From Candidatus Omnitrophota bacterium (GTDB lineage Bacteria > Omnitrophota > Gorgyraeia > 2-01-FULL-45-10): DNA of 32,000 nt. Location of the stretch: contig JAMWCX010000002.1 in the NCBI GenBank assembly GCA_023818895.1, positions 300,001-332,000 on the forward strand, given 5' to 3'. Under the pieces are notes generated by a model, which did not search any database, had not been told where the DNA came from, and was given only the letters and a program-made list of their open reading frames with translations. A program made the position numbers and the translations under genes. This document shows, one piece after another, positions 10,236-32,000 of the stretch (positions are counted from its first letter, which is position 1; the number at the start of each line of letters is the position of its first letter).

Positions 10236-10236
10236 A

Positions 10237-11517: not shown

Positions 11518-11531
11518 ACTACGTAAAGTGG

Positions 11532-12263: not shown

Positions 12264-12294
12264 TTTGTCTCCTTATATTGATATTAACCTTGTA

Positions 12295-12323
12295 AATATA
12301 TCATATAAAGCACAAGAAGTCAA
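12295..12323 (-). promoter_or_regulatory. Internal sigma70-like promoter ahead of the FecR/barrel/OPX/BY-kinase genes
   Basis: On the minus strand: TTGACT (12323..12318), 17-nt spacer, TATATT (12300..12295). A ~25-nt leader with AAGGAG precedes the ATG at 12263. It lies in the largest intergenic gap (97 bp) of the locus. Confidence 0.55.
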
Positions 12324-12360
12324 ATGCAAGGATTAACTTTTTTATCTCTTAATTTTGCCG

Positions 12361-13026: not shown

Positions 13027-13029
13027 CCA

Positions 13030-13575: not shown

Positions 13576-13583
13576 AAAACGCG

Positions 13584-14189
13584 TTAACGCTCCAATCTTA
13601 CCTTGTCCAGGTTTTCTCTGTACACCGTCACGTCTCCTTTATTTATCAGGTCCGCCATCCATCCGTCAAGGGCGCTCTGTATCTTCTTGTTAAAAAGCTC
13701 GCGTTTTATCTCGGGAGCCATCTCTTCATAGCTTTTTATCTTGCCGCCCTCCTCCATCGCCGTCTCTTCATACCTTTTCTTCACTTCCTCATCGCTTACC
13801 CGTGTGGAAGCGGCAAGCTCCCTCATCTTCATGTTGAACAGCTGTTTCAGGAGGGCCTGCTCCCAATATCTTTCGATCTCCAACATAAAAGACCTCTCCC
13901 TGTCAAACCCATGCCGCTGCGCTTCCTGCACAAGAAGTTTTCTCATTATTATTTCGTCGAGAAGCTGCGCTTTTGCCCGGGCCTGGTCTTCCGGCAGGCG
14001 CCTGCCGTATCCCGAAAGATAAGTCTCCTCCTGAAAATCCTTGGTGCTCATCCTGTAATTGCCGATCCTTACCACAAGCTCCTTTTCGGCCGGTTCCTTG
14101 CCGTGCGGCCCGCAGCCGGATACCGATGCCATGGCTGCCACCACGATAAGCGCCAAATAGAATCTTCTTCTCATATGCGATTTTTTCAT
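13584..14189 (-). CDS. Lipoprotein with SurA-N-terminal-like chaperone domain (no parvulin domain)
   Basis: I trimmed the track ORF (13584..14264) to the ATG at 14189, which gives MKKSHMRRRFYLALIVVAAMASVSGC (lipobox VSGC) and overlaps the upstream stop (TGATG). SurA_N-like helix: AQLLDEIIMRKLLVQEAQRHGF. No rotamase motifs. Confidence 0.6.
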   Translation of the reverse strand: MKKSHMRRRFYLALIVVAAMASVSGCGPHGKEPAEKELVVRIGNYRMSTKDFQEETYLSGYGRRLPEDQARAKAQLLDEIIMRKLLVQEAQRHGFDRERSFMLEIERYWEQALLKQLFNMKMRELAASTRVSDEEVKKRYEETAMEEGGKIKSYEEMAPEIKRELFNKKIQSALDGWMADLINKGDVTVYRENLDKVRLER

Positions 14190-16868: not shown

Positions 16869-18112
16869 TTTGTCTCTGCCTCAGTCTTAACCCTAACCTC
16901 TGCCTTCCCCAGCCACAGATTTCTGTCTTCACCGGTGCGCGGATCATACGCGTCATTTACAAAACGTACACCTATTAGTGAAAGCCCTCCTTGTGACCTC
17001 AGCGGAAACTCATAGGTCGCAATCTGCGCCGTTTCAACAAAAGCCTCGCCTATCTCCTGGCCATCGACTTCCACCACCAGGTAGGGCCATATACTCTTAA
17101 AGGGGGAACCTTTGGCTTCTAAGATAAGGAGGCTGTCTCCTGCAGGTACATTCAGAATAGCATATGCAGTGGAGTTAGAGTATAAAACACCATTAGCATA
17201 ACTGATATTCTTGTAGTCTTTAGATATCAAAACCCAGTCGTCGGTTGCAACCACTCCGTTCTTGCGCCTCTGGTATCGCGCCTTGGCGCTTTCTAATATC
17301 TTTTCCCCGTCTTCTGCCAATACTGTCCTGCCTTCAACTCTTTTCCACGCCCCTGCTTCAAAAAACTTCTCTGCTTCAAGAATCTTTGATTTAATATCAG
17401 TAACTACCAAGGTGTCTTCTTTTATTGATCCGGCGATTTCTTTTCTGTACTGCCACAGATTATCAGCAGCTATAAATCTATACAGCTCGGTTGTATTTTG
17501 CCGCGCATCGGCTGTTATCTTTTTGAGCAAGTTAATATCCTTTGAAGCCCTCCAGACGGCGTCATAAACTTTCTGGGCCTGGTCCGGGCTTGTTTTCATA
17601 ATATAGGCAAGCCTTTCTGTCACGAAATTCCTCTCTTTGTCGTCTAGAGATTTCCAGAAGTTCATGCCCGTATAACCGATGGCGTAAGCTATGCTGTAAC
17701 CGTTTGGATCATGCAGGTATGCCTCATGAAGGTCTTTGAACGCTTCCTTAACAGACCTTCCGGCCTCGAGCCTGGCAAGGCCCCGTTTCAGGTAATATTC
17801 GGCATTCTCAGGATCAAGCGCAATAGCTTTATCGTAGAGCCCGATCGCCTTATTTAAAACATCTGTTTTATCGTAGAGATACCTGGCGGATTTTCGTAGA
17901 AATTCCGCATACCCACTTACATATTTCGAACTAAAGGGATTGAGTCTTATGGCTCCAACAAACCGGGAGGGAGCCTCTGACCACCTGTATTGTCCGGCAA
18001 GCTTCTCGGCTAAATTAAAGTTCAATTCTGCCAGAAGAGACACAATAAGGATAGCGGCGATTAAAAAAAATGCTATAAACAATATTAAATTAAAAATCCA
18101 TTTTAACGACAC
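16865..18112 (-). CDS. Membrane-anchored protein: TPR region + C-terminal beta-sandwich, carbohydrate-binding-module-like domain
   Basis: 415 aa. N-terminal TM (IFNLILFIAFFLIAAILIVSLL). TPRs (AIGLYDKAIALDPENAEYYLKRGLARLEAG..). The C-terminal ~130 aa end in ..WPYLVVEVDGQEIGEAFV..IGVRFVNDAYDPRTGEDRNLWLGKAEVRV. This resembles the F-x-N-D..D-R-N-L signature I associate with CBM-type domains (recognition only). Confidence 0.45.
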   Translation of the reverse strand: MSLKWIFNLILFIAFFLIAAILIVSLLAELNFNLAEKLAGQYRWSEAPSRFVGAIRLNPFSSKYVSGYAEFLRKSARYLYDKTDVLNKAIGLYDKAIALDPENAEYYLKRGLARLEAGRSVKEAFKDLHEAYLHDPNGYSIAYAIGYTGMNFWKSLDDKERNFVTERLAYIMKTSPDQAQKVYDAVWRASKDINLLKKITADARQNTTELYRFIAADNLWQYRKEIAGSIKEDTLVVTDIKSKILEAEKFFEAGAWKRVEGRTVLAEDGEKILESAKARYQRRKNGVVATDDWVLISKDYKNISYANGVLYSNSTAYAILNVPAGDSLLILEAKGSPFKSIWPYLVVEVDGQEIGEAFVETAQIATYEFPLRSQGGLSLIGVRFVNDAYDPRTGEDRNLWLGKAEVRVKTEAETK

Positions 18113-18120
18113 TTTTAATC

Positions 18121-19236
18121 TTACTTTCCCGATACCTTTTTATAAACCAATCTTGTTTGATCCGCTATAATATCCCAGTTATATTTCTCGGCGACCATCT
18201 CAATTTGCCTTTTCTTCTCCTCATCGCTCAAGGGTTTTAATGAAAACTCCCTTATCTTTTGAGCAAGCTCCTTAATATCGCCGGTTTTAAAATACCTATA
18301 TCTCGGCAAACCCACTGCCAAGTTGGCCGGAATATCCGACACGATGCAGGATAGCCCATAGCTCATGGCTTCAAGCAATGCTATAGAAAGCGCCTCGTAA
18401 TACGAAGGGAGGACAAAGATACCTGCGTTGCTATATAGTTCTTCTAAAGACGCACCGCTCAAGACACCTGTAAAGATGATATCGTTTCCCGTTTTTCTTT
18501 TAAGAGAGGTCGTGTAGCTATCCTGGTGTGTGGCATCACCCACTATAGCCAGCTTCCAATCCGCAAGTCCTGCCATCTTAAAGGCATCGATAAGGTCATG
18601 GAAACCTTTTTCGGGGACAAAACGGCCCACTGCCATAATATACCTATTTTTTTCCAATCCATATTTGGATATGGTATCTTTACTTTTTGAAATTTCTGGT
18701 ATATTAACACCGTTCGGGATAAATACCACATCCCGACGGTATTTCGTAGCAATGTCATCGGCCAACTGTTGGGAAACGCATATAACGGCATTTGAATACC
18801 TGCTTCCCAGGTATTCGCCAAACCGCAAAACCGCTTTGGCGACCCGGCCCCATTTTTTTCGCTTATAATCCGGCCCGTGATTCGTCATGACGACCTTCAT
18901 ACCTAACATCTTGGCAAGCGGAACAAAAAGCGATGGCCCAATCGCATGTATGTGTAATATGTCAGGGGACAGTTTTCGGGCAACTAAAACACCGATAAAG
19001 GTATGAAAGAAAGCTTCGAGAAATTTATTTCTTATACATGGCAAAATAATCAGTTTCACACCATCATATTCTCTCGTCGACTTATCGACATAGGATCGAC
19101 GCGCAAATACCGTTACATCACATCCTCTTTTGACGAGCAGAGGATAAAGGTTCTGGCTATGGACTTCCGGTCCACCCTGCACGGCGGGAAAGCCTCGTAT
19201 ACCCAATACCGCTATCTTCACATTCTCCAACGTCAA
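18121..19236 (-). CDS. GT-B glycosyltransferase, family 4 (DUF1972-type N-terminus)
   Basis: 371 aa. N-terminus KIAVLGIRGFPAVQGGPEVHSQNLYPLLVKRGCDVTVFARRSY. C-terminal GT1 motif FVLPSYYEALSIALLEAMSYGLSCIVSDIP. TTG start overlaps the upstream stop (TTGA). Confidence 0.85.
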   Translation of the reverse strand: MTLENVKIAVLGIRGFPAVQGGPEVHSQNLYPLLVKRGCDVTVFARRSYVDKSTREYDGVKLIILPCIRNKFLEAFFHTFIGVLVARKLSPDILHIHAIGPSLFVPLAKMLGMKVVMTNHGPDYKRKKWGRVAKAVLRFGEYLGSRYSNAVICVSQQLADDIATKYRRDVVFIPNGVNIPEISKSKDTISKYGLEKNRYIMAVGRFVPEKGFHDLIDAFKMAGLADWKLAIVGDATHQDSYTTSLKRKTGNDIIFTGVLSGASLEELYSNAGIFVLPSYYEALSIALLEAMSYGLSCIVSDIPANLAVGLPRYRYFKTGDIKELAQKIREFSLKPLSDEEKKRQIEMVAEKYNWDIIADQTRLVYKKVSGK

Positions 19237-20219
19237 TATCGCTGCCTTTTTTTAAAAAATTTATTCTCCAAAACCCAAAGAATCGGTTTTAGCGGATGGT
19301 CCCAGATGGCGGGAGCCGCGCTTCCTATCATCCAGCAGTTCTTCTTGCATTTTTGCACCATCTGTCGAATTTCTCTGGCCTTTCCGCCGCTCCATATCTC
19401 CTGCCAGGTCTGCTCCCTTAGATTTCCTATAGGCTGTTTTTCATCCATTCCATTACAGACAAGCACATCGCCCCAAGGATCTATGAAAAAACCGTTCTTG
19501 CCCATCTCGCATGGCAATAATCGCGGGTTACCGTTGATGTAATTTATGAGTCCGTAATTGAAGTAGGCCCTGAACCAGTCCTTCGGCCTTTTTGATCTCA
19601 GCAGAAGTTCGATCAATTTTTTGAATTCACCGCAAACCTTTTCCTTATCCTGGATCTTATTATCCCATTTGTGGAAATAGTGCGAGTTGTGAAGGGTAGC
19701 CGTGGCAAACTCATACCCCAGCGCCTCGGCCAGGCGGTATAATGAAATTAGGTCTTCACAGTTGATATCCTGCACCGTTGTGCTAAAACCGATATCCTTA
19801 AGTCCCATGGCACGCAACTCAAGAAGAGTCCTCAAGCCCCTATCAAATCCGTCGGGAATTCCGCGTATGGCGTCATTGGCTTTCGGAAGGCCCTCGATGC
19901 TTATCCGTAGTCCGATATCAGGAAATCGCCTGCACAATGATATAACCCTTTCGGTAAAATAGCCGTTTGTTATTACCACAAGTCTTCTTGTTTTCCTCCT
20001 TACAACTTCCACCAACTCCGGCAGGTCTTCCCTCACAAACGGCTCTCCACCGGTTATATTGGCAAAGAACATGCGCGGAAGCTTTTCCAGCGTCTCCACC
20101 CCGATTTCTTCGGACGCCTTGCTGGGATTGGCCCAGACATTACACATATTGCAGCGTGCGTTGCATCTGTATGTCACTATTATCGCGCCATGTAATTTCG
20201 CAGACATATGCCGCCTCAT
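19233..20219 (-). CDS. Radical SAM enzyme with C-terminal Cys-rich (SPASM/twitch-like) extension
   Basis: 328 aa. CxxxCxxC cluster in VTYRCNARCNMCNVW and GGEP motif (ITGGEPF). C-terminal cysteines: LLPCEMGKNGFFIDPWGDVLVCNG .. QKCKKNCWM. The start may instead be Met5 (20207), which has GAGG upstream. Confidence 0.8.
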   Translation of the reverse strand: MRRHMSAKLHGAIIVTYRCNARCNMCNVWANPSKASEEIGVETLEKLPRMFFANITGGEPFVREDLPELVEVVRRKTRRLVVITNGYFTERVISLCRRFPDIGLRISIEGLPKANDAIRGIPDGFDRGLRTLLELRAMGLKDIGFSTTVQDINCEDLISLYRLAEALGYEFATATLHNSHYFHKWDNKIQDKEKVCGEFKKLIELLLRSKRPKDWFRAYFNYGLINYINGNPRLLPCEMGKNGFFIDPWGDVLVCNGMDEKQPIGNLREQTWQEIWSGGKAREIRQMVQKCKKNCWMIGSAAPAIWDHPLKPILWVLENKFFKKRQRY

Positions 20220-20238
20220 TTTATAATACTATATTTCT

Positions 20239-21462
20239 TTATTTTTTAAGCGCCTCTTCGTATATCGCCATTAACCCTTCGTAGTGCTTCTCGCCATTGA
20301 ATTCATCTTCCACCATCTTCCTTGCGTTTTTGCCCATTTCTATGACTTTTTCCGGGCTTTTCGCAAGATATCGTATCTTAGAAGCCAGGTCATAGGCATT
20401 ACCGGGCTCGAACGTAATGCCAGTTTGACCGTCTTTGACCAATTCCGGAATGCCTCCTATGCGTGAACCTACCACAGGCTTACCGAAGGCAAAACTCTCC
20501 ATCACAGACATCGGAAAATTCTCGTAACATTCTGAGGCAATCACTGTAAAAATTGAGTTTTTTATTTCTCTTTTCAGATCCTCTCCTTTTTTATATCCCA
20601 AAAATTCGACGTTTGACGCCTTCTGGCTGTTCGCTTTTGATATGAGGGCGTCTTTGAGCGGCCCGTCACCGATTATCTTTAGCCTGGCTTCCTCAACATA
20701 TTTGAACGCATCTATAAGAGTAAATAATCCCTTCTCGCGAGATAGCCTGCCGAAATATACTACCGAACGGCTTTCAGATCCGTATACGGGTTCAAACTTC
20801 TCAACCATCAACGGATAAGGCAAGCGCGCAATCTTCCCTCTAAACCCCATCTCTTCGAGCTTATTTTTCATGAATTCGCTCGGTGAGATAAATACGCTGA
20901 TAGGGTCATAGATATGCAATATGTTATGGTGTAGATACATTTCAAGAGTGTTTATAAGGCTTTTGAGGTAGCTGTCTTTGGTGCATTTATTAATGAAACA
21001 TTGATAAAATCTCCCACCTTTGCATCTTTCGCAGGGTTTGCCGCCGGCAAGCATGGAATAGGAAGGGCATACCATTTTATAATCATGCATAGTCATAACA
21101 GCGGCTATGCCGCGCCTTTTAATAACGTTGAGGATAGAGGGAGATATCTGATGGGCGAAATTATTAAGATGGATTAGGTCCGGCCTATTGGAGGCGACAA
21201 GCTTTTCGAACTTCTTTTCAGCCTCAAACGAATAAAATACATTAAGCGCTAGCTCGATTTTCCGAAAAATACCGGCGCTTTCATTAAAATCAATATTTTC
21301 CACGAAGTATCTCTGATACTCGTATGGCGGATTAAGCGGATGGTTCATGCCCCAAAATATTACCTCATGACCTTTCTTCTTTAACAACTCCCCTGTGGCA
21401 AGGGTTGCGGTTGCATCCCCGCCTTTAGCATATAGGAATTTGTTTATAAGAAGGATTTTCAT
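20239..21462 (-). CDS. GT-B glycosyltransferase, family 4, with Cys-cluster insertion
   Basis: 407 aa. N-terminus MKILLINKFLYAKGGDATATL. Cys cluster: CPSYSMLAGGKPCERCKGGRFYQCFINKC. C-terminal motif ASECYENFPMSVMESFAFGKPVVGSRIGGIPELVKDGQTGITFEPGN. Confidence 0.88.
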   Translation of the reverse strand: MKILLINKFLYAKGGDATATLATGELLKKKGHEVIFWGMNHPLNPPYEYQRYFVENIDFNESAGIFRKIELALNVFYSFEAEKKFEKLVASNRPDLIHLNNFAHQISPSILNVIKRRGIAAVMTMHDYKMVCPSYSMLAGGKPCERCKGGRFYQCFINKCTKDSYLKSLINTLEMYLHHNILHIYDPISVFISPSEFMKNKLEEMGFRGKIARLPYPLMVEKFEPVYGSESRSVVYFGRLSREKGLFTLIDAFKYVEEARLKIIGDGPLKDALISKANSQKASNVEFLGYKKGEDLKREIKNSIFTVIASECYENFPMSVMESFAFGKPVVGSRIGGIPELVKDGQTGITFEPGNAYDLASKIRYLAKSPEKVIEMGKNARKMVEDEFNGEKHYEGLMAIYEEALKK

Positions 21463-22109
21463 TTTTTCTCCGCCACGACAAAAAGGGATTCAGAGATACC
21501 TAATAATAATGGCCGTATGGACCTGATGCTGAAGCCCAGCGACTTGAATTCATCACGTATCTGACCGAAGGTTACCGGGTACCACATGACTTGGCGCAAG
21601 TTGCGGTCTCTTCTCCGCAATATATTCTGCAGCGAATTCTTATGATAGTATACAAAAATAGCCATCTCCTTTGATACCCTCATAAGTTCCGCTATTATCC
21701 TGCGGCGTGCGTCGGGTGGCGTGTGCCCCAAAAGTCTCAGGCATACGGCCGCGTCAAAGCTGCCATCCTCGATATTCAATGATTCCGCATTGCCGGAAAT
21801 AAAATTGATCTCGCTGCCATATCCCGCGTTCTCTATTTTCTCTGACGCTTCGTCCATCATCGCCTGCGATACATCAGCCCCTGTCACCTTATAGCCTTTT
21901 TTTGCAAGATAAAGGCTAAGCCTGCCGGTACCGCAAGGTATATCCAATATCCGGGCACCCTTCCCTATTCCATTACCTGAGAGTAGCTTATAAATTAAGC
22001 TCTTTTCAGCCATATCGACGAGCCGGCCTTTGATCGAAAGAAACCTGCCCCTATCATAACTTCTGGCAACATTCTTTTCCTGGTATGCGGTCTTGGCTTT
22101 GTAATTCAT
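21459..22109 (-). CDS. Class I SAM-dependent methyltransferase
   Basis: 216 aa. Motif I ILDIPCGTGRLSLYLAKKGYKVTGADVS. Post-I/II motifs GNAESLNIEDGSFDAAVCLRLLGH. ATGA overlap with the upstream GT. Confidence 0.88.
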   Translation of the reverse strand: MNYKAKTAYQEKNVARSYDRGRFLSIKGRLVDMAEKSLIYKLLSGNGIGKGARILDIPCGTGRLSLYLAKKGYKVTGADVSQAMMDEASEKIENAGYGSEINFISGNAESLNIEDGSFDAAVCLRLLGHTPPDARRRIIAELMRVSKEMAIFVYYHKNSLQNILRRRDRNLRQVMWYPVTFGQIRDEFKSLGFSIRSIRPLLLGISESLFVVAEKK

Positions 22110-22112
22110 ATC

Positions 22113-23318
22113 TTACCCATTTTTTGAAAACAGTTCCAGATACCGTCTTGCTATATCCTGCATATTATAATCTTCCCTGATCTTCCTGATGCAGTTTTCT
22201 TTAAAAGAATCGTGCGCGTATGCGATGGCAAACATCTTATCCACAAGATTATGCTCATCCACAATATAACCTGTCTTTCCGTCTTCGATTATTTCGCCTG
22301 AGCCCGGAACGTCTGTAGTAATGATGGGGACCCCGATGGACATGAATTCGATCCAAGTAAGCGGTGGCGCGATTATGCAGTTTTTATTAAGGATCGGTGA
22401 AAGAAATACATCGGATGCCTGTTTAAGGGTATCAAAGAAATCCTTAGCTGTAGGCCTTACATATATGCCGGCAGCTGGCTCATCAAAAGCCCGGAAAGAG
22501 CTTTCGAACGTTTCCGGTTTAAAAGCAAAATATATCGTCGCCTTTAAGCCTTTTGCTAAAGCTCGCCTGGCGCAGTCCAGCAAAAACAGGAAATCCTGCC
22601 TCTGAACCTGTTGTATATAGCCTGCCCAGACAAACAGGGGCCGATCCGCCGGCAGGCCTGCCTTTTCTTTAGAAGACGCTTTATCCCCTACGGTACCTAT
22701 GCGTTCAGGCGACACGCCCCACGGAATATGCTTTACGCTGCGATCATTCAAACCGAATTTTACAAGCCAGTCCGCAAAAGCGCGCGAATAGGCTACAATG
22801 GACGCTCCGGATAGGTCATATGAAAGCTTAAGATAAGGATGATAAAGGAAAGGGTTCCTACCCTGGTGCGCGATCGCTGAAACCGACATACCGGCACCAA
22901 GCTTATTGATCGTTTTTAATAAACCTCTGTTTGACGGGCCAAAATTATCCATGAGGTGCACGTGCGAAAACGGCTCTTCCGCATAAAGTGAACCAAGCTT
23001 TTTCATTATCCTATGCGCGCTGATTGTCTTTTCGACTATTCCCCACAGAAGCGGGAAGGCGCCCTCCCGCCAGAATATGCGCCGGCGGTAATGGACGTCA
23101 GGAGTTTCCACAAGCTGAGGGAGTATATAGTCGATCGTTACGCGGCACTTCCCAACGAAAAGCTCTTCTCTTTCAAGATGATGTTTGCGCACGGATATGA
23201 TGGAGACCCTGTCCAGGCCGGAAGCGATCAGCCTTATCGCGTCACTCCAGAAGTTCTTATCGCCGCTGCTTTTTTCCGGCTGATAATTCAATCCAGCAAA
23301 GACGACATGTCTACACAT
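22113..23318 (-). CDS. GT-B glycosyltransferase (family 1/4-like)
   Basis: I trimmed the track ORF (22113..23435) to Met40 (MCRHVVFAGLNY..). The longer form would overlap the upstream gene by 125 nt, whereas Met40 gives an 8-nt overlap with GGAGAG upstream. C-terminal motif: EFMSIGVPIITTDVPGSGEIIEDGKTGYIVD. Confidence 0.78.
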   Translation of the reverse strand: MCRHVVFAGLNYQPEKSSGDKNFWSDAIRLIASGLDRVSIISVRKHHLEREELFVGKCRVTIDYILPQLVETPDVHYRRRIFWREGAFPLLWGIVEKTISAHRIMKKLGSLYAEEPFSHVHLMDNFGPSNRGLLKTINKLGAGMSVSAIAHQGRNPFLYHPYLKLSYDLSGASIVAYSRAFADWLVKFGLNDRSVKHIPWGVSPERIGTVGDKASSKEKAGLPADRPLFVWAGYIQQVQRQDFLFLLDCARRALAKGLKATIYFAFKPETFESSFRAFDEPAAGIYVRPTAKDFFDTLKQASDVFLSPILNKNCIIAPPLTWIEFMSIGVPIITTDVPGSGEIIEDGKTGYIVDEHNLVDKMFAIAYAHDSFKENCIRKIREDYNMQDIARRYLELFSKNG

Positions 23319-24615
23319 AGTTATTGCCGCTCTCCTTAAGCACTCTGCTATAAACAGCCGCCAAGAGAAAATAGAACGTATAGCTTGAAGAATCATACCT
23401 CCACACGAGGTCATAGACCGGCCCCAGAATAGCATAATAGGCCCACATCCCTATTAGCGCTGTTGATATGACAGATAGATACGCATCCCTGAGCAGCACA
23501 TTGGCTTTCCTTATCATCATTATGAGATTCAATTGTATGAAATAATAAAGGCCCAATCCTACTAGACCAACGTCAGTTAAAATAGCCGCCAACTGGCTTA
23601 CGGCCGGCACCTTTATCGCAGAATACATGACCCCTTTCTGCATGACGCCGCCGAAGAAGGAGCTTCCTGGCCCTAAACCCAGCATTATCCTGTATGGATC
23701 TCCCTTTATTGCATTCCACACATAAACTAAAGCGCCTATTCTCGATTGGCGGCTCAGCTCATAATCTGATATTTGAGAGGACGCCAGCCCGAATATTCTC
23801 AGGACCTTATTGAGATATAAGGCTAGCAGATTACCGCTGACCCTGTATACCCTGCCCCACGACATGATTACAAAATACAACAAAATTAGCAAAAGGATTG
23901 CGATGCAAATATGGATGAATACTTTTTTTCGACCCTCATCGCGCTTGAACGCGAAGTAACTGATAAGCAGAATGATCACCGGTGCCGTAAAAATAAACGC
24001 TTTTATTTCTCCGAAAAGCGCTATTATAAAAAAAGCGGCTATCGGAAGCAGATAAAACCATCTGAACTTCTTTATTAACACAAACGAAACTATGAGGGAT
24101 GTCGCATAAGACATATATATACCGAGATCAAGGGTCCCCCACGGCCCTAACGACCATGAGATATTATCCCATCCTATGCCGAGTATTAAATATCTGTAAA
24201 AGCACTCAGGTATCTGTATTATCAAAAGAAATAAAAAGAGTGTTATGAACTTTTTCATAGTACTTTCACATATGTCCATATTTACAAAAGCCATAAATAA
24301 CACCGGATATCTTATATAGACCATAAGATTACCGAGGAATTCATACAGTCCTGTCTCATTGGCAACAGCGGATACCATGGACCAGATGATAAACAACCCC
24401 AGAGGCACGGCTATGCAGGTCATCCTGAAAGGCTTGCCCTCTGCAGAGGTCCTCAGGAATTGGAGAAAGAAAACAACCGGTATGATGACAAAGCTGATCC
24501 ATCTCAAAAAGATGTAATTTTCCAGGACACCGCTTGGCGCGGTCTGGCGGGGTATGTACCACAAGATCGGCAGCAGTATTATTGATACCTTTTCCAGAAA
24601 ACCTGCTTTCGCCAT
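23311..24615 (-). CDS. Polytopic membrane protein, probable Wzy-type repeat-unit polymerase
   Basis: 434 aa, about 11-12 TM helices. Large loop with SRQSRIGALVYVWNAIKGDPYRIMLGLGPGSSF, a degenerate Wzy_C-like R..W..P..G.G.G motif. It lies between the flippase and the GTs. Confidence 0.6.
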   Translation of the reverse strand: MAKAGFLEKVSIILLPILWYIPRQTAPSGVLENYIFLRWISFVIIPVVFFLQFLRTSAEGKPFRMTCIAVPLGLFIIWSMVSAVANETGLYEFLGNLMVYIRYPVLFMAFVNMDICESTMKKFITLFLFLLIIQIPECFYRYLILGIGWDNISWSLGPWGTLDLGIYMSYATSLIVSFVLIKKFRWFYLLPIAAFFIIALFGEIKAFIFTAPVIILLISYFAFKRDEGRKKVFIHICIAILLLILLYFVIMSWGRVYRVSGNLLALYLNKVLRIFGLASSQISDYELSRQSRIGALVYVWNAIKGDPYRIMLGLGPGSSFFGGVMQKGVMYSAIKVPAVSQLAAILTDVGLVGLGLYYFIQLNLIMMIRKANVLLRDAYLSVISTALIGMWAYYAILGPVYDLVWRYDSSSYTFYFLLAAVYSRVLKESGNNYV

Positions 24616-24658
24616 AGGTTGGAGCTCACCCTTTCAGGCAAGGCACCTTTACCTGTGA

Positions 24659-26086
24659 TCAAGCCTTGCCGAGAGACGATCCTTTTTCGCCACGCAAAAT
24701 GCCTACGATCAGACTGATCGATCCGCGATTAATATAAGAGATATAGGCAAGGATTAAAGATGCTGAAAAAATATAAAGCCACAAGCCCAGCTGAAATATT
24801 AATATTGATACAATGAAAACGATGCCTAACTTTAAAAACATTATTTTGTCTACAGCTATTTTCACTTTATCTTTCGATAAAATAACCCTAAGGAAGAGCG
24901 CGGAGATAGAAGCCACGAGAACGCTGAATGTCGTTGCCGCAATGCCATACGTCGGAACCAACAGTATATTCAATATAACGTTAATTGCCGCCGCGATCAA
25001 GGCTGAGTAAAATATCACCATCGTATTCTTATGTATCTGGAATATGATCTCATAGAACCAGGCAAACGTCAGTATCAGAATGGCCAATAATAGATAAGGT
25101 AGATATATATGAGCGCTCAGATATCTCGGGTCTACCATGATGTGAAAAAACGGCTTCAAAAACACTAAGCATACTATCACTATGGAACCGCCTGTCAGGA
25201 CCAGCTTATTAAATATCTTTGAGAAGAAGGTCTCCTTGTCCGGATGGGAAGCGCTGTCCAGCGCGGAGTCCTGCCATGCCATGTAAAAGATCAGGCTTCC
25301 TATATACATGACGGATGGTATTTTGTCAGCAACGGCATATATGCCTACCTCGTCAAGGCCTTTATAGATAGACAGTATGTACCGTCCGGAAATGCGTATG
25401 AACCACCAGCTTATGGTCGCAGGTAGAAGGGGCAGGGAATATTTAAGGATCGGCGTAATTACCGCCATATTGAAGTCCATCGGATTGTAGAATTTTATCA
25501 GGTCGGCTTTTTTGACCTTATACAGCAGGCTTATGGCATGCGCCAGGATCGCGGCTATAAAAAAACCGGAAACGCCCTGCCCGAAATACCCGATAAAAAT
25601 AATATTAAATACAAACATGCTGCTGGTAAGTATTATACCTGACTTGGAATACAACACATTTTTTCCGAGTGCCCTGACGATCTGCAGAAAACAGGCATCG
25701 ATGACTTTGAGGGCTATGTAAAAAACAACCAGAAATAAAGAGCTATAAGGAATGATCCCTCTTAAATAAGGCGCCCCTAGCCAGCAAAGGATGACAAAAA
25801 TAAACACATTGATGAGGATAACATTTACGACAGATGATATGGTAGCGGTCCTTGCCTGCAGCCTGGTCTCCTCGATTACGAATCTATATGCGCCGTCCGT
25901 GAGCCTCAAGGATATGACCGAGGCCAGAAGTATGGACCCTGTCACCACAAGGTCTATGAAGCCATACTCTGCCCGCGAAAATACTTTTGTGTAGAAAGGC
26001 AGCAGCAGAAAGCTGACGAAGCTTGCGCCGAATGTGCCTAACCCATATATAAAAATGTCTTTAATTAATCTCTTCTCTCTCAACAT
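24659..26086 (-). CDS. wzx: Wzx-type oligosaccharide flippase (MOP superfamily)
   Basis: 475 aa, about 12-14 TM helices. N-terminus LIKDIFIYGLGTFGASFVSFLLLPFYTKVFSRAEYGFIDLV is typical of Polysacc_synt flippases. Confidence 0.85.
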   Translation of the reverse strand: MLREKRLIKDIFIYGLGTFGASFVSFLLLPFYTKVFSRAEYGFIDLVVTGSILLASVISLRLTDGAYRFVIEETRLQARTATISSVVNVILINVFIFVILCWLGAPYLRGIIPYSSLFLVVFYIALKVIDACFLQIVRALGKNVLYSKSGIILTSSMFVFNIIFIGYFGQGVSGFFIAAILAHAISLLYKVKKADLIKFYNPMDFNMAVITPILKYSLPLLPATISWWFIRISGRYILSIYKGLDEVGIYAVADKIPSVMYIGSLIFYMAWQDSALDSASHPDKETFFSKIFNKLVLTGGSIVIVCLVFLKPFFHIMVDPRYLSAHIYLPYLLLAILILTFAWFYEIIFQIHKNTMVIFYSALIAAAINVILNILLVPTYGIAATTFSVLVASISALFLRVILSKDKVKIAVDKIMFLKLGIVFIVSILIFQLGLWLYIFSASLILAYISYINRGSISLIVGILRGEKGSSLGKA

Positions 26087-26110
26087 AGTATCTGGTTGAT
26101 GTTAGAACGG

Positions 26111-27052
26111 TTATGATATCTTCCTTAACACCACTCTTAAAAATTCCCGGTTGCCTTCGTCACTATCGTTTGTGTAATCTATTTTTTCTACCGCACGGCT
26201 TCCGAATAGCAGTGACTTTATATTTATTAATGTCTTAAAGACAGCCGGAAAGCAGGAAATCAGATCGCGTAATCTTCTCTTTGCAGCCGCAAGAGTGCCT
26301 GATGTGATGCGCAAAACATCCCCTGCCGTTGATACTCTGAGCATCATGAGGGAGTCTGAAAAATTTATTTTAAAAAAATATGAAATGCTATCTTTATCAA
26401 AAAAGGTTATATGCGGCTCGTGATAATAAGGCTGATTTCCTCTGTGGATCAGGACCTCTGTAATATCGTTGGGGGTCTCAACTATCATTATCCCGTCTTT
26501 TTTGAGACCCTTCAAAACCGTATAGATATATTCTTTCGGATCCTTCAAGTGCTCCAATACGTGAGATAACAGGACTACGTCGTATTGGCCTTTATCCGGA
26601 GAGGCAATATTTACTTCGGGAGGATATTCGATGGTCTTGTCGATCTCATCTGTGAAAAGGCTGCAATCCCTGTAGGCTTTTTTAAACTCGGCCAAGTTAA
26701 AGCCGTAACCGGCGCCAAGCTCAAAAACAGCGGGAGTCTTTACAGATTCCGGCAGATATTTTTTAGCGAGGCCGACAAGCGCTTTGCCCCTCGCCCGGAA
26801 TCTGGAAACATCACCGCTTGATAATTTAATACCGATCTTGGCCTTATCTCTGTATATATTCTCATAATAATAATCTAATTTACTCTTTTCAATTTCCTGA
26901 TGGCATACCTGGCAGAGACCGCAATTGCGGCATTTCATTATACGCAGACCTGGAAACATCTGCTTAAAAAGGCGTTCTTTGTAAATATAGTCGGTTATTT
27001 TCGAGAATTCTTTACCACCGCACGATACGCATTGCATCCTGCACGCCCCCAT
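26111..27052 (-). CDS. Class I SAM methyltransferase with N-terminal Zn-ribbon (sugar C-/O-methyltransferase-like)
   Basis: I trimmed the track ORF (26111..27103). Its first 17 codons are the stem-loop of the giant gene's terminator. The likely start is Met18 (27052) or Met23 (27037, MQCVSCGG..). Zn ribbon: CVSCGG..x28..CRNCGLCQVC. Motif I VFELGAGYGFNL. Also YDVVLLSHVLEHLKDP. Confidence 0.8.
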   Translation of the reverse strand: MGACRMQCVSCGGKEFSKITDYIYKERLFKQMFPGLRIMKCRNCGLCQVCHQEIEKSKLDYYYENIYRDKAKIGIKLSSGDVSRFRARGKALVGLAKKYLPESVKTPAVFELGAGYGFNLAEFKKAYRDCSLFTDEIDKTIEYPPEVNIASPDKGQYDVVLLSHVLEHLKDPKEYIYTVLKGLKKDGIMIVETPNDITEVLIHRGNQPYYHEPHITFFDKDSISYFFKINFSDSLMMLRVSTAGDVLRITSGTLAAAKRRLRDLISCFPAVFKTLINIKSLLFGSRAVEKIDYTNDSDEGNREFLRVVLRKIS

Positions 27053-27059
27053 AATACTG

Positions 27060-27068
27060 ATTATATCA
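27060..27068 (-). promoter_or_regulatory. Candidate extended -10 promoter element for the polysaccharide operon
   Basis: The minus strand reads TGaTATAAT (TG 27068..27067, TATAAT 27065..27060) immediately after the terminator U-tract. The -35 is poor (ATTAAT). Met18 ATG (27052) lies 7 nt downstream of the -10. Confidence 0.35.
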
Positions 27069-27069
27069 C

Positions 27070-27103
27070 AAAAAATGCGCCCATTAATCACTAATGAGCG
27101 CAT
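27070..27103 (-). terminator. Strong rho-independent terminator of the giant repeat-protein gene
   Basis: The minus strand reads AUGCGCUCAUUA-GUGAU-UAAUGGGCGCAU (12-bp stem with one G-U pair and a 5-nt loop, 27103..27075) followed by UUUUU-G-U-G (27074..27067). It begins 29 nt after the TAA stop at 27133..27135. Confidence 0.7.
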
Positions 27104-27132: not shown

Positions 27133-30100
27133 TTAACGCCTGTCAGTCAACCCTGTCGGACCGCCTGCCAGGGATGACGTAAGAGTATAACCGCCCTCAG
27201 CCGTTGTCGCGCCCGGAGGTGTTACCGAGTTCTGCACATCAAGGCGCTGTGAGACCTCCAAGTCCGGACTCAATGTTGAAAGCTGGGTCCACGCATTGTT
27301 GGAGTACTTGTATAAGCCTTTGGCGCCGAAATCGGCTATTATGTCATAGGTATTATTATTTACTGTCAGCATGAACGAATCAGCATCCCAGCCTGAAAGC
27401 TTCGTCCATATGCTATTAGCGTATTTGTATAAGCCATTGACGCCGAAGTCAGCGACAATGTCATATACGCCATTGTTGAGCTGCGAAAGCGCAAAATACT
27501 CGGCATTCCACGAAGTGAGCCTGGTCCAGCTGCTGGCGGCGTACTTGTATAAACCATTGATACCAAAATCCGTTATGATGTCGTAACTGCCGTCGGTGCG
27601 TCTGTCGGTCAGCGTGAAAGAATCGGCGTTCCAACCGGAAAGTTTCGTCCAGCTGTTATTTGAGTATCTGTAGAAACCGCTACCGCCGAAATCTGCCACT
27701 ACGTCGTAAGCATCGTTGTACAGTTTGGATACCGTAAAACAATCGGCGTTCCAGCCGGAAAGTTTCGTCCAGCTGTTAACAACGTATTTGTATAAGCCGT
27801 TGCCGCCAAAATCAGTTACGATGTCGTAACTGCCGTCGGTGCGTCTGTCGGTCAGCGTGAAAGAATCGGCGTTCCAGCCTGAAAGCTTTGTCCAGCTGCT
27901 GCCGGAATACTTGTAGAAGCCGATAGTACCGCCAAAATCACTTATTATGTCATACGTACCGCCATAAAGGCTTGTAAGCATGAAGAAATCTGCGTTCCAG
28001 CCGGTAAGCTTGGTCCATGTATTGTTGGAATACCGGTGCATGCCATTAAGGCCGAAATCTGCCACTACATCGTACTTGTCGTTATTAAGGCCACTAAGCA
28101 TGAAGGAATCGGCATTCCATCCGGAAAGCTTGCTCCAGCTATTATTGGAATAGCGATAGAATCCGCTGCCTCCGAAATCGACGATAGCGTCATAGCTGTT
28201 ATCAGAGCGCTTCTTTGACAGCATGAATGAATCGGCGTTGTAAGCGGAAAGCTTGGTCCAACTAATACCATTGTATTTAAAGAATCCATTAATGCCAAAG
28301 TCGGCAAATATATTCTCGCTGGTGTATTGCTTGACTCCCGTATCGTATTCCACCATTACCAGGTTGCCCAAGCTGTCGTATTCCTCGAATACAATGTCAC
28401 CGTCCACGATACCGTCCTGGTCGAGCATCCAGTGGTATCTGAGCGTGGTACCGTTCGTGAAGTACTCTTTCGTCTCGTAGATAACGTGCGCATCAGTATA
28501 GAAGGTGTCGAGCTTGCGGTCGGTCGTGGACGGGAAGTACTCTCTCGTAAAGTAGTAGCCGGTATCGAGGACTTCCTTGATCAGAAGGCCGGAGCTATTG
28601 TATTCCCTGAACGTTACGTCGCCGTCCGGAGTCGAATCCTGGTCGAGCATCCAGTGGAATTTGAGAGTGGTGCCGTCCTCGAAATACTCCTTCGTCTCAT
28701 ATACCACGTGCACATCTGTATAGAAGCTGTCGAGCTTGCGGTCATTGGTTGAGGGGTAGTACTCCCTGGTCATGTAGTATCCGGTGCTGAGAGTCTCCTT
28801 TATAAGGCGGCCGTAATCGTCCGTAAGGTCTCCCTGCGTGCCGCCGTCATCGACGGTCGTATCATCATATTCTGATACAGTGCCATCTGCCGTAGTCTTC
28901 GTATGTATCCTTCCTGACGGATAGTGGGTATAGATAGCGCCGCCGCCGATGCCCGTAAGATACCCGATCAGCGTATAGCCGGAGGTGCTCACCAAACCAA
29001 AAAGTCTCCCCCTGTAGGAACTATTATTGACTGGATCTTGGAGCTCTACCGCGATAAACTCCTGAGATGCGAATTCATCGCGTAGATCATATATATCGAG
29101 CGCCCTGTGAAGTTCCGCGCCTGCGGCAAGGTTGGAGAGAAATTCCGATAGATTGTCAATTCCCCCTATCCCGATCACTATTTCCTGTAGTATCGCGACA
29201 TATTCACTATTACTCATCAATTGTTCATCTATGGGTGTTCCGTACATGAGCGAGAAGTCGGCCTGGAGGTTGCTTGCAACGATGGCGTCGTGGACAACGC
29301 CAGGCTCTGATAAAGTGGCGAGGTAGCCGGAAAGCGTATAACCAGGCCCGTTTACGACGCCGGAAAGATATGCGCGGTAAGTATCGGGATGCGCGACAGG
29401 ATCCTGATCAGAAACCGCGATGCCCGACGCTGCCGCGAATGCGACGCGCAGGTTATACGTATCGAGCGCCAAGTGCAGCTCGGCGATCCCGGCAAGTTCT
29501 GTAAGGAAACTGTTGAGCGTATACGCGGGCTCATGATCATTGATGTAGGCGGCTATTCCCTGTATAAGATTTGTATAATCACCATTGGTAAGAATCTGCT
29601 CGGCGACGGGAGTGCCGTACATCAGCTCAAATTCATCCCGCAGCTCATTTGTACCCAGCGCATCATGCAACGTGACGGTATCGGTAAGAGACTGTAAGAA
29701 CGCTATCTCGTTGGCCTGGTTATAGCCGCCTGCCATGACTATCGCCGCAAGGTAACTGCGATACTCACCAGTGATGGCGATCTGGTCAGCGACAGAGATA
29801 CCTGAGCGTATAGCGAACTCTTCGCGCAGGTCATTGTCTATTATGGCCTGATGCAGATCGGCCATCCTTGAAAGCTCGGTTGTGAAGGTCGTCACCGTAT
29901 AAGTCGGATTGTCGAGCATATAACTTGCTATTCCGGAAAGTATATAGAGATAATCGTTGCTTGATGCCGGAGGCGTTGCAACAGCTACACCGTACATTAG
30001 AAGGAAGTCCGCCTGGAGATCGGCTGACGCCACAAGGGCCTCATGTATATCCGCCATGTGCGAAAGCGCACCGGTAAAATCGCTCACGCCATAACTTCCG

Positions 30101-32000
30101 CTATTGGCGACTATATAACTTGCCACGCCTGATAAGATAGCGCGGTAATTGTCGCTCTGGACCGAGGCGGTCGTGTCAGGAGTCACGCCATAGACAGTGT
30201 TGAAATCGGCCCTCAAACTGGCATCCGCCAGAAGCGCCTGGTGTATGTCCACTATGTATGGCACTCCGTTAAGTATATCAGTGACGGTAATTCCTGGATT
30301 AGCGAGAACATAAGCTCCGATGCCGGAAAGAACAGTCCTATAATCTTCACTGGTGACGGTGGCCGTGGTGTCAGCCGTCGTGTTATACGCGATGTTGAAA
30401 TCCGCCCTCAGGCCCGGATCGGCCAGAAGCGCGGCATGTATATCCTGCATATAAGGAATGGCACCCAAAATATCATCTATAGTGGTGCCGGCGTTGGCCA
30501 GTATGTAACTGGCTATGCCAGAGAGCGCGTAGCGGTAGTTTTCGCCGGTTATATTGGCTGTGGTGTCGGCCGTTACACTATATATAACCTCAAAGTCCAC
30601 TCTCAAAGCGGCATCCGCAAGAAGCGCCGCGTGTAGATCGGCCATGATGGGAAGCGCGTCCAGAAGATCGGAGGTCGTAAGGCCATTATCCAGAATATAG
30701 GCAGCCATTCCGGCGAGCGCGTAGCGGTAAGATTCTGTTGTAACATTTGCTGTAGTATCAGCGACGACATTATACACAACGGTGAAGTCCGCCTGAAGAT
30801 CGGCATCGGCAAGAAGGGCCGCGTGCAGATCCGCCATTACTGGTATCGCATTAAGTATATCGTTAGCAGTCAGCCCCTCGTCGAGAACATAGCTTGCGAT
30901 GCCTGAAAGGGCATAGCGATATGCCTCGGTAGTGACGTTTGCGCCTGAGTCGGCTATAGTATTATAGACAGTATTAAAGTCGGCTCTTAAGCCGGCGTCG
31001 GCAACCAGGGCCTGATGGATATCGGCCATGATGGGTATGGCGCTCAGGATATCATTTATTGTCATAGGAGGATTGTCTAAAACATAGCTTGCGATCCCAG
31101 AAAGTGCGTAGCGGTAAGATTCGGTGGTCACGGATGGTGTAGTATCCGCGGTGACGTTATATACGACGTTGAAGTCCGCGCGCAAAGACGCATCCGCAAG
31201 AAGCGCGGCGTGTATATCTGCCATCGGCGTCAGTGCGCCGACAAAGTCGCCTACCGTATAGCCGGCGTTATCGAGGATATAATCAGCGGTGCCGGAAAGC
31301 AGATTCCTATAATTTTCGTTTGTCACAGGATCCTGGTTAGCCGGCGCTATGCCGTAAATAACCTCAAAATCATTCTGTATATCAGCTGACGCGGTGATGG
31401 CGGCGTCGAGGTCTGCCATGATGGGAAGCGCCTGCGTAAACCGCAGGACCGTGTAACCGGGTGTTGTCACGATGTAACGCGCAATACCGGAAAGCGCATT
31501 TGCATAATCAGGGTTATTTACCGGGTCCTGGTCGGCGACCGCTATGCCATATATAGTCTCGAAGTCAGCTTGAAGATCCGGATCCGCTGAAATAGCGGCG
31601 TGCAGATCATCTATAATAGGAAGGCTTGCCAGGAAGTCATTCACGGTCATCGGAGGATTCGCAAGAATGTAATTGGCCACACCCGAAAGTATATTACGAT
31701 AGTCAGCGTTCGTAACCGGGTCCTGGTCGGCGACCGCTATGCCGTAGACAGAGGCAAAATCCTCTCCCACCCCTGTAGGATCTGCGGCAAGCGCCTCGTG
31801 AAGATCGGCCATGAGCTCAAGCGCATCCATGAATATAGCTACGGTATATCCGGCGTTATTCAGGATAAAGCTCGCAATACCAGAAAGGTTAAAGCGGTAG
31901 GCATCATTCGTAATGGGATCCTGGTCGGCCGGCGCAATGCCGTATATTGTCTCGAAATCGGCCTGCAGAAGAGCATCTGCCTGGAGGGCTTCATGAACAT
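27133..32000 (-). CDS. Giant modular repeat protein, C-terminal >=1,620 aa (partial; N-terminus beyond right edge)
   Basis: The track ORF starts at the first in-window Met (31830). The frame stays open to nt 32000, reading ..VHEALQADALLQADFETIYGIAPADQDPITNDAYRFNLSGIASFILNNAGYTVAIF-MDALEL.., which continues the same repeat. Three repeat classes plus a 45-aa tail. No family confidently recognised. Confidence 0.9.
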   Translation of the reverse strand, partial: VHEALQADALLQADFETIYGIAPADQDPITNDAYRFNLSGIASFILNNAGYTVAIFMDALELMADLHEALAADPTGVGEDFASVYGIAVADQDPVTNADYRNILSGVANYILANPPMTVNDFLASLPIIDDLHAAISADPDLQADFETIYGIAVADQDPVNNPDYANALSGIARYIVTTPGYTVLRFTQALPIMADLDAAITASADIQNDFEVIYGIAPANQDPVTNENYRNLLSGTADYILDNAGYTVGDFVGALTPMADIHAALLADASLRADFNVVYNVTADTTPSVTTESYRYALSGIASYVLDNPPMTINDILSAIPIMADIHQALVADAGLRADFNTVYNTIADSGANVTTEAYRYALSGIASYVLDEGLTANDILNAIPVMADLHAALLADADLQADFTVVYNVVADTTANVTTESYRYALAGMAAYILDNGLTTSDLLDALPIMADLHAALLADAALRVDFEVIYSVTADTTANITGENYRYALSGIASYILANAGTTIDDILGAIPYMQDIHAALLADPGLRADFNIAYNTTADTTATVTSEDYRTVLSGIGAYVLANPGITVTDILNGVPYIVDIHQALLADASLRADFNTVYGVTPDTTASVQSDNYRAILSGVASYIVANSGSYGVSDFTGALSHMADIHEALVASADLQADFLLMYGVAVATPPASSNDYLYILSGIASYMLDNPTYTVTTFTTELSRMADLHQAIIDNDLREEFAIRSGISVADQIAITGEYRSYLAAIVMAGGYNQANEIAFLQSLTDTVTLHDALGTNELRDEFELMYGTPVAEQILTNGDYTNLIQGIAAYINDHEPAYTLNSFLTELAGIAELHLALDTYNLRVAFAAASGIAVSDQDPVAHPDTYRAYLSGVVNGPGYTLSGYLATLSEPGVVHDAIVASNLQADFSLMYGTPIDEQLMSNSEYVAILQEIVIGIGGIDNLSEFLSNLAAGAELHRALDIYDLRDEFASQEFIAVELQDPVNNSSYRGRLFGLVSTSGYTLIGYLTGIGGGAIYTHYPSGRIHTKTTADGTVSEYDDTTVDDGGTQGDLTDDYGRLIKETLSTGYYMTREYYPSTNDRKLDSFYTDVHVVYETKEYFEDGTTLKFHWMLDQDSTPDGDVTFREYNSSGLLIKEVLDTGYYFTREYFPSTTDRKLDTFYTDAHVIYETKEYFTNGTTLRYHWMLDQDGIVDGDIVFEEYDSLGNLVMVEYDTGVKQYTSENIFADFGINGFFKYNGISWTKLSAYNADSFMLSKKRSDNSYDAIVDFGGSGFYRYSNNSWSKLSGWNADSFMLSGLNNDKYDVVADFGLNGMHRYSNNTWTKLTGWNADFFMLTSLYGGTYDIISDFGGTIGFYKYSGSSWTKLSGWNADSFTLTDRRTDGSYDIVTDFGGNGLYKYVVNSWTKLSGWNADCFTVSKLYNDAYDVVADFGGSGFYRYSNNSWTKLSGWNADSFTLTDRRTDGSYDIITDFGINGLYKYAASSWTRLTSWNAEYFALSQLNNGVYDIVADFGVNGLYKYANSIWTKLSGWDADSFMLTVNNNTYDIIADFGAKGLYKYSNNAWTQLSTLSPDLEVSQRLDVQNSVTPPGATTAEGGYTLTSSLAGGPTGLTDRR
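27268..28305 (-). repeat. Class C: about 9 tandem units of 38-42 aa (about 120 bp), beta-propeller-blade-like
   Basis: Unit: DFGxxG(L/F)Y(K/R)YxxxxWTKLSGWNADSFxLxxxxxxxYD(I/V)(I/V)x. DFG motifs occur at aa 1177, 1218, 1258, 1298, 1340, 1379, 1421, 1461 and 1500 of the track ORF. Confidence 0.85.
27577..27876. repeat. 57-bp perfect direct repeat (27577..27633 and 27820..27876), 243 bp apart, inside class C
   Basis: Both copies read gatgtcgtaactgccgtcggtgcgtctgtcggtcagcgtgaaagaatcggcgttcca. A further 38-bp pair with one mismatch lies at 27621..27658 and 27741..27778. Confidence 0.85.
28336..28821 (-). repeat. Class B: two and a fraction copies of a 74-aa (222-bp) unit with YD-repeat-like motif
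   Basis: GRLIKETLSTGYYMTREYYPSTNDRKLDSFYTDVHVVYETKEYFEDGTTLKFHWMLDQDSTPDGDVTFREYNSS aligns with GLLIKEVLDTGYYFTREYFPSTTDRKLDTFYTDAHVIYETKEYFTNGTTLRYHWMLDQDGIVDGDIVFEEYDSL, followed by the partial copy GNLVMVEYDTG. Confidence 0.85.
28936..32000 (-). repeat. Class A tandem repeat: 16 visible units of 59-66 aa (about 177-198 bp)
   Basis: Consensus: (M/I)ADLHxALLADxxLRADFxxVYxVxADTTxxVTxExYRxALSGIASYxLxNxGxTxxDxLxAxP. Counted by hand from the translation (aa 1-965 of the track ORF plus one unit upstream of Met1). Confidence 0.9.

Follow-up and report, generated by a model that had tools for sequence, protein, structure and literature searches.

A three-helix repeat of about 65 residues, the probable building block of a long acidic stalk in a secreted protein of Omnitrophota

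Members of the Omnitrophota are nano-sized and uncultured, and their very large surface proteins may play a part in contact with hosts or prey. A 32,000-nucleotide stretch of one Candidatus Omnitrophota genome (contig JAMWCX010000002.1, positions 300,001 to 332,000, assembly GCA_023818895.1; the whole stretch is called the window below) ends in a minus-strand gene (27133..32000) in which a tandem repeat of about 65 residues occupies 28936-31998. How is this repeat built, how old is the array, and what is it for? Our analysis indicates that the repeat probably forms a long acidic stalk in a secreted protein of sugar-cleaving type.

The window holds the C-terminal 1621 codons of the gene and its stop codon (27133-27135); the reading frame continues without a break to base 31998, and the 5′ part of the gene lies outside the window. 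The array makes up residues 1-1021 of the visible 1621-residue product, which is identical over 1620 residues to residues 1328-2947 of MCM8791039.1, a 2947-residue protein of Candidatus Omnitrophota that the database labels 'DUF3131 domain-containing protein' (P0026 below). The whole of P0026 carries 24 repeat units, 16 of which are visible in the window.

The repeat unit, its sub-types and its predicted fold

Units were found by anchoring on the motif [LIV][HD]xA[LI] and were aligned with MAFFT. An earlier reading of the bare letters (the sequence-only reading) had counted 16 visible units of about 65 residues at 28936-32000; the count is borne out, on the minus strand at 28936-31998, with anchors 61-66 residues apart. 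Unit 0 is a partial copy of 57 residues, and the remaining visible units have 61-67. The repeat is real and protein-coding, far beyond chance: against a hidden Markov model (HMM) built solely from the units of other proteins (the family-only HMM), every unit of P0026 scores 47-85 bits (E 1e-15 to 1e-27 for the visible units). We took two plus-strand open reading frames within the array (29389-29697 and 30241-30636) to be shadows of the gene on the minus strand, because the homologues and the unit conservation all lie in the minus-strand frame.

Only A12, F23 and Y42 are invariant columns of the 16-unit alignment, with H10 and L46 nearly so; the wider set of landmarks first proposed as invariant (LH.AL, L.ADF, Y, YR..LSG.A.Y) was otherwise overstated. 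The family signature reads L9-H10-x-A12-L13 ... L19-R20-x-x-F23 ... Y27-G28-I29 ... Q34 ... N39 ... Y42 and continues L46-x-G48-I49 ... G58-Y59 ... F64-L65, in tandem copies, and all 24 units of P0026 pass the family-only HMM. The conserved positions are mostly those of a hydrophobic core (L3, L9, A12, L13, L19, F23, Y27, I29, Y42, L46, I49, F64, and L65). The array contains no lysine in 1021 residues and has 12.7% aspartate plus glutamate, a net charge of -103 and a pI of about 4.05. Lysine averages 2.1% in the units of other family members and reaches 5.1% in the C-terminal blades of P0026 itself.

The proposed division between units 0-3 and 4-9 is confirmed in the alignment. Units 0-3 (31240..31998, minus strand; borders 31828-31998, 31630-31827, 31435-31629, and 31240-31434) are of the 'DQDPV' loop type; their loop, YGIA(V/P)A(D/N)QDPVxN, is near the family consensus G-I-x-V-x-D-Q-x-P-x-T-N, and they score 73-84 bits against the family-only HMM. 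Units 4-9 (30073..31239, minus strand; borders 31045-31239, 30853-31044, 30661-30852, 30466-30660, 30271-30465, and 30073-30270) are of a threonine-rich 'TT' loop type, YNVTADTTANVTTE, with the pattern YN(V/T)xADTTxxVT(T/S)E. Units 4-9 had been said to be the most similar to each other, and units 4-8 are indeed the most alike of all (59-70% amino acid identity). Units of the TT type are without the family-conserved G28, Q34, N39, and Y59, and this loop type is confined to P0026 among the family proteins compared; it is a lineage-specific derived variant.

Unit 10 (29881..30072, minus strand) is transitional, with the loop GVAVATPPASSN and 44-53% identity to units of both blocks. Units 11-15 (28936..29880, minus strand; borders 29695-29880, 29503-29694, 29320-29502, 29137-29319, and 28936-29136) follow a B, A, B, A, B alternation, which makes a two-unit super-repeat of about 122-125 residues. 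The B type reads S-G-I-x-V-x-D-Q ... Y-R-x-Y-L-x-G-V-V-N and has a short helix 3; the A type reads M-Y-G-T-P ... Q-G-I-A-x-Y-I.

For AlphaFold2 we aligned di-units that do not overlap, taken from the window and from other family members, in 59 rows (A4). The resulting model of units 6-7 (DNA 30496-30882) has a mean predicted local distance difference test score (pLDDT) of 96.6 and a predicted template modelling score (pTM) of 0.88, with helices at residues 6-25, 27-37, 50-66, 70-89, 91-101, and 114-128. Each predicted unit thus consists of helix 1 (20 residues), helix 2 (11 residues), an ordered 12-residue loop, helix 3 (17 residues) and a 3-residue turn, which supports the earlier suggestion of a small helical bundle per unit; helix 1 begins in what the sequence phasing had put at the end of the preceding unit. 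The segment that defines the sub-types is exactly the loop between helices 2 and 3, the only long non-helical element of the unit (pLDDT 96-98), so the two variants had rightly been called loop variants. A single-sequence prediction for four units was all helical at pLDDT 46 and was used for secondary structure only. With so high a pTM for the pair, the junction between consecutive units is probably fixed, unlike that of beads on a flexible string. Foldseek searches with the di-unit model gave no match in the PDB (best E 1.4, TM ≤0.32) or in BFVD (best E 1.1), and a profile search of PDB sequences with the units gave none either.

Distribution and age of the array

A profile of the 16 units, searched exhaustively against 1.84 billion representative proteins, matches 45 at E ≤ 1e-3 and 18 at E ≤ 1e-30, with P0026 as the best match; all 11 organism-named family members are Candidatus Omnitrophota. 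The leucyl-tRNA synthetase (LeuRS) encoded in the window is likewise closest to those of Omnitrophota metagenome-assembled genomes, with 73% identity to the first and 64% to the next. A word-indexed search of the same collection, made with the 1021-residue array and with a 150-unit profile, came back empty even though P0026 and its relatives are in it; since the exhaustive search found 45 there, an empty indexed result does not mean absence for repeats this rich in alanine, leucine and aspartate. A search of genome and metagenome contigs with the protein for related loci returned no relative.

Pfam and NCBIfam scans of the protein, the 16 single units and the 59 di-units revealed no recurrent family, and the units matched no annotated repeat of either database, the kind of match that had been named beforehand as counting against the sequence-only reading. 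Only DUF6642 (PF20347) reached a whole-protein Pfam cutoff. Its 28.3 bits (cutoff 27) come from summed weak matches to helices 1-2 of TT units, with no single significant stretch in the whole-protein scans, and cover profile positions 47-92 (46 of 182). Because it was matched in merely two of the 59 family di-units, both from P0026, we treated it as compositional, an effect of alanine-, leucine- and aspartate-rich helix, and rejected homology. A match to Phage_TAC_5 was likewise rejected as sub-threshold or compositional. From these searches the 65-residue three-helix repeat is undescribed, rare and apparently restricted to Omnitrophota.

Within the family, the order of a glycoside hydrolase (GH)-like domain, the helical units and then YD-like repeats, blades and tail recurs in P0029, P0031, P0041, P0050, and P0077, with 8-11 units; a signal peptide and an N-terminal module at the head belong to the recurring order as well. 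P0027 has 21 units and no GH-like domain, and P0003 has two units directly ahead of its blades; P0027, P0029, and P0003 show A/B alternation throughout their arrays. The array always lies between globular modules. Distant orthologues that share the N-terminal domain have 8, 9, 11, and 24 units.

Is the array still growing? The sequence-only reading took the pattern to suggest a recent expansion of the central block by unequal recombination, with units 11-15 decaying; on such a model the array would be an active, recombination-prone contingency repeat with decaying ends. The greater likeness of units 4-8 to one another than to other units speaks for this, as does a periodicity of 192-198 nt at 60-78% identity found by laxer repeat detection (families D2 and D4-D7). 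At the DNA level, however, the most similar units share only 58-67% identity (codon-threaded), exact matches reach at most 17 nt within units 4-9 and 29 nt in the whole array, and between 28936 and 32000 Tandem Repeats Finder detects nothing of unit length. Where paired TT-block units have the same residue, the codon is also the same 41.9% of the time, and codon usage alone would give 37.2%; codon sharing is thus near random expectation and synonymous sites between units are close to saturation. Recent expansion of the block is not supported. In P0026 numbering, units 4, 5, and 6 pair with units 12, 16, and 17 at 75%, 70%, and 67% identity, a relic of the ancient duplication of a block of several units. 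The orthologue P0029 forms a strain-level cluster with P0071-P0074, and every full-length member has nine units. The sole length polymorphism in this cluster is one extra 40-residue propeller blade (P0073 versus P0071), so it is the blade region, not the helical array, that varies in copy number.

Units 11-15 had been described as shorter and progressively degenerate. They are shorter (60-64 residues), but they alternate between conserved types and are not degenerate: units 13 and 15 share 55% amino acid identity, 11 and 13 share 41%, and 12 and 14 share 36%, and a direct DNA repeat with 366-nt spacing runs through them (family D15). Their family-only HMM scores are 62, 76, 72, 47, and 58 bits, compared with 47-61 bits for units 4-9, and units 11 and 13 share 58-61% identity with units of P0027, P0030, and P0031 and just 41-56% with the other units of P0026. 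Since units 11-15 match the family as well as or better than the central block, they are conserved family types and not decay products; the apparent gradient arises because every unit had been compared with the majority type of its own protein. By the same comparison units 4-9, internally the most uniform, have drifted furthest from the family consensus. The sequence evidence therefore describes an array that is old and stable, neither recently expanding nor decaying, and the overall picture that a 2026 preprint gives of long genes in Omnitrophota agrees with this (10.64898/2026.06.07.730766); as an account of this array, the contingency repeat is scarcely credible. For the reading of repeats in general, units that seem degenerate beside one protein's majority type can be conserved ancestral types.

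Role of the array

P0026 comprises, in order, a signal peptide (Sec-type, judged by inspection), an N-terminal module, a DUF3131 domain, the 24 units, two YD-like repeats, about nine blades and a conserved tail. The DUF3131 domain lies N-terminal to the array, outside the window, and matches PF11329 at 32.5 bits (cutoff 20.3); in the PDB it is related to 8WY1 (5e-29), to 8RF9, a Cgs structure (3e-19), and to 5GZH from GH144 (2e-3). The corresponding domain of P0029 matches PF10091 (E 7e-19). Both the Pfam and the PDB comparisons place the domain of P0026, as a prediction from sequence, in the DUF3131/GH144-like beta-1,2-glucanase superfamily; (alpha/alpha)6 domains of the DUF3131 type belong with the beta-1,2-glucan-acting group GH144/GH162/GH189 (PMC10834661, PMC12102758). 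P0026 and several of its relatives carry a helical array of a kind that is absent from the descriptions of characterised members of that group.

We somewhat favour the interpretation that the array is a rigid, acidic stalk or spacer in this Sec-exported multidomain protein. Four observations argue for it: the conserved positions of the unit are mostly hydrophobic core, the array always lies between globular modules, copy number varies between distant orthologues and not between strains, and the 1021 residues have no lysine and a net charge of -103. In such a stalk the tandem three-helix domains would stack end on end as one unbroken, rigid and strongly acidic rod. The rod would keep the beta-1,2-glucanase-like (alpha/alpha)6 domain at the N-terminus a defined distance away from the C-terminal modules, and the copy number of units would set its length. 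The YD-like repeats, the beta-propeller and the tail would presumably do the anchoring or target binding. The array may have started as an alternating A/B pair and grown long ago as one or several units at a time were duplicated; since then, purifying selection acting on the protein would have kept it. The rigidity of the whole array, the spacer role and the choice of anchored end are what we infer from these data.

Several points weigh against a stalk. The model coordinates cover two units at most, and the straightness of the whole array, its rise per unit and its rigidity are not shown by the model. H10, R20, D33, Q34, and N39 are polar yet conserved, in or near the loop, and a pure spacer would have no obvious need of them; the two loop types are equally compatible with a binding role. 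The catalytic-type N-terminal domain lies outside the window and is known solely through the identical database protein, and for every family member the stalk role rests on sequence and prediction.

The closest analogy to the proposed stalk is the FG-repeat of staphylococcal Embp/Ebh (FIVAR-GA modules; PDB 6GV5 and 2DGJ), in which 125 residues form two three-helix bundles and each repeat adds about 70 Å to a rigid rod (PMC7587433). In both systems a bacterium exports a very large protein with helical repeats in tandem, a module has about 60-65 residues and three helices, and two alternating module types make a super-repeat of about 125 residues. The likeness is one of organisation only: FIVAR (PF07554) and GA (PF01468) are not listed by hmmscan of the whole protein, the 16 units or the 59 di-units even at E up to 1-10, and Foldseek against the PDB returned no Ebh/Embp entry, though those entries are in the library, so neither sequence nor predicted fold places the units in the FIVAR/GA family. 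A long helix is shared between bundles in Embp/Ebh, where the Omnitrophota units are joined by a 3-residue turn, and the Omnitrophota unit has the ordered 12-residue loop with its G-I-x-V-x-D-Q...N motif. The host here is a Gram-negative-type bacterium, and the partner domains are GH-like and beta-propeller. The rigidity of the Embp rod was established by crystallography and small-angle X-ray scattering (PMC7587433), in contrast to that of the Omnitrophota array, which is suggested by the AlphaFold2 di-unit (pTM 0.88).

With HEAT, ARM, TPR, Sel1, and spectrin repeats the units share an all-helical build in series, an extended scaffold and conservation mainly of core hydrophobics; a unit of about 65 residues with three helices and a long ordered loop fits none of them. 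HEAT units have about 40 residues, TPR units 34 and spectrin units about 106. Neither the repeat protein nor its units matched the Pfam models for HEAT, ARM, TPR, Sel1, PPR or spectrin, and the TPR matches in the window come from other genes.

Rods built from successive helical bundles are already known from giant surface proteins of bacteria. What is new is the building block, a three-helix repeat of about 65 residues with an ordered loop and without a Pfam or NCBIfam entry or a PDB match. As a defined module it offers a handle for annotating part of the 'dark' proteome of Omnitrophota, it ties a domain of beta-1,2-glucan enzyme type to a stalk-and-propeller architecture, and it is a small, confidently modelled unit fit for expression and testing.

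The conserved polar residues and the joint replacement in the TT block leave some weight to another role, in which every unit would bind a ligand, either Ca2+ or a glycan (beta-glucan, for instance, or exopolysaccharide of the bacterium itself), the array would be multivalent and the two loop types would be two specificities. The loop carries the family-conserved G28, D33, Q34, N39, and Y42, with Y59 in the next turn; TT units have replaced G28, Q34, N39, and Y59 together. The array is also fused to a GH-like domain, and in this genome its gene heads a polysaccharide locus. To the eye, the acidic helix-loop-helix with D-Q-D-P-V-T-N-x-D-Y loosely recalls Ca2+-binding loops. The canonical EF-hand loop has 12 residues, with ligands at positions 1, 3, 5, and 12 and glycine at position 6. 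By inspection, the loop of the repeat has valine at position 5, threonine at 6 and no acidic residue at 12, and scans of the whole protein, the 16 units and the 59 di-units gave no Pfam match to EF-hand or dockerin; no Pfam carbohydrate-binding family was matched either, and Foldseek found no solved binding domain. Moreover, I29, V31, and L37 of the loop are hydrophobic and its pLDDT is 96-98, as expected of a structurally pinned loop, and adjacency to the polysaccharide locus is not kept in the relative examined (L085). Ligand binding is therefore a possible but doubtful role.

In its boldest form, which we think unlikely, the segment G-I-x-V-x-D-Q-x-P-x-T-N-x-x-Y would be a binding site and the array an all-helical, multivalent 'ruler' for glycans or cations, with up to 24 sites at fixed spacing. 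Such a ruler would align the fused beta-1,2-glucanase-like domain along periplasmic glucan of a prey or host or along the bacterium's own exopolysaccharide, and in the lineage-specific threonine-rich block the specificity would have shifted, or enzymes of the neighbouring locus would glycosylate it.

The TT loops (NVTADTTANVTTE) could also be glycosylation sites modified by enzymes of the adjacent locus, for example with a Wzy_C-family protein acting as O-oligosaccharyltransferase, so that the central block would be a glycosylated segment of the stalk. Each TT loop has 4-6 threonine or serine residues, and its N-x-T motifs, of which there are one or two, keep to positions 28 and 36. The locus begins 29 nt past the stop of the repeat gene with no terminator-like site between them, and a Wzy_C (PF04932) protein is encoded downstream on the same strand, with glycosyltransferases nearby; it matches, weakly and below cutoff, 'putative O-glycosylation ligase, exosortase A system-associated'. 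Against this, the Wzy_C protein could just as well be the polymerase in a Wzx/Wzy pathway, the array shows no enrichment of N-x-S/T sequons (16 observed versus 12.6 ± 3.3 in shuffles), the TT type is confined to P0026, and we found no literature evidence for protein glycosylation in Omnitrophota. This explanation seems very unlikely, and a stalk is the role that we retain for the array.

Flanking modules and neighbouring genes

Downstream of the array, a linker and two YD/RHS-like repeats of about 74 residues each (YYMTREYYPSTNDRKLDSFYTD...EYF.DGTTL.FHWMLDQD) lie at 28375..28935 on the minus strand; the region has no Pfam match. The DNA of the two copies is 79% identical (28415-28591 versus 28637-28813; family D9), and no other duplication in the gene is as young. 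In P0027 there are about four of these repeats. Next, at 27262..28374 (minus strand), come about nine blades of 40-41 residues (DFGxNGxYKYSNNxWTKLSGWNADSF) that resemble those of a beta-propeller, with 60-74% DNA identity to the reference copy; they are the only part of the gene seen by Tandem Repeats Finder (27524-27951, period 123). The C-terminus in the window has no Pfam match, and the homologues found with it carry FG-GAP/VCBS domains (PF01839/PF13517).

The protein ends in a conserved tail of about 40 residues (27136..27261, minus strand; PDLEVSQRLDVQN...AEGGYT.TS.LAGGPT), of the form P[DE][LP]EVSQRLDVQN...[AS]EGG[FY]T.T..L[AV]GGPT with a few more residues before the stop. It is kept in the propeller-bearing relatives P0001-P0006, P0029, P0030, and P0046. 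No hydrophobic segment or anchor is visible in it, and it may be a signal for sorting, secretion or attachment. In P0004 (973 residues, JGI) the blades and tail are the same as in P0026, and residues 30-575 hold eight copies of another, 68-residue repeat (HATALLTALRASSGAGLTYL...LYGLMYNADGTT) where P0026 has helical units; a profile-profile comparison did not demonstrate a link between these 'HATALLTALRASSGAGL' repeats and the unit family (hhalign probability 24%).

On the N-terminal side, outside the window, residues 1-270 and about 740-800 of P0026 contain a small module (…F[RT]..W...G[FY]I[TS]V....G.I..[IV].[IL]T..G…), with several copies before the GH-like domain and one after it, directly ahead of the first helical unit. 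The same arrangement is found in P0027, P0029, P0031, P0041, and P0050.

The polysaccharide locus (7719..27103, minus strand) follows the repeat gene on the same strand and, from its predicted products, is a complete locus of Wzx/Wzy type. It encodes methyltransferases, a Wzx-type flippase, GT1/GT4 glycosyltransferases, a priming glycosylphosphotransferase, the Wzy_C-family protein, Wza, Wzc, and an EpsD-like protein, together with a radical SAM-SPASM protein (19233-20219), a TPR and CBM60 protein (16865-18112), a small HAMP protein (13030-13575), a FecR-domain protein (11532-12263) and an EpsL-like outer-membrane barrel (10237-11517), all five on the minus strand. Two further open reading frames of the locus (23311-24615 and 12361-13026) have no family match. 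Divergent from the locus on the plus strand lies a pair of genes for a response regulator with HTH_3 and receiver domains (6600-7313) and a PilZ-domain protein (7310-7696), which overlap; they are possible regulators of the polysaccharide genes linked to cyclic di-GMP.

Downstream context is readable in one relative (L085), as the contigs of P0027, P0031, P0035, and P0041 end at or near the gene. In L085 the next gene downstream encodes another secreted repeat protein and not a polysaccharide gene; because the adjacency is not kept there, the stalk mechanism is not built on it. Most contigs of the GH-like orthologues break at or just past the repeat gene. Upstream, L082, L084, L085, and the P0073 contig share GTP cyclohydrolase I, DUF212, LysM-YkuD, and AccA, followed in three of these four places by an anti-sigma/STAS pair, MlaEFD, CHASE2-SpoIIE, and GAF-HD.

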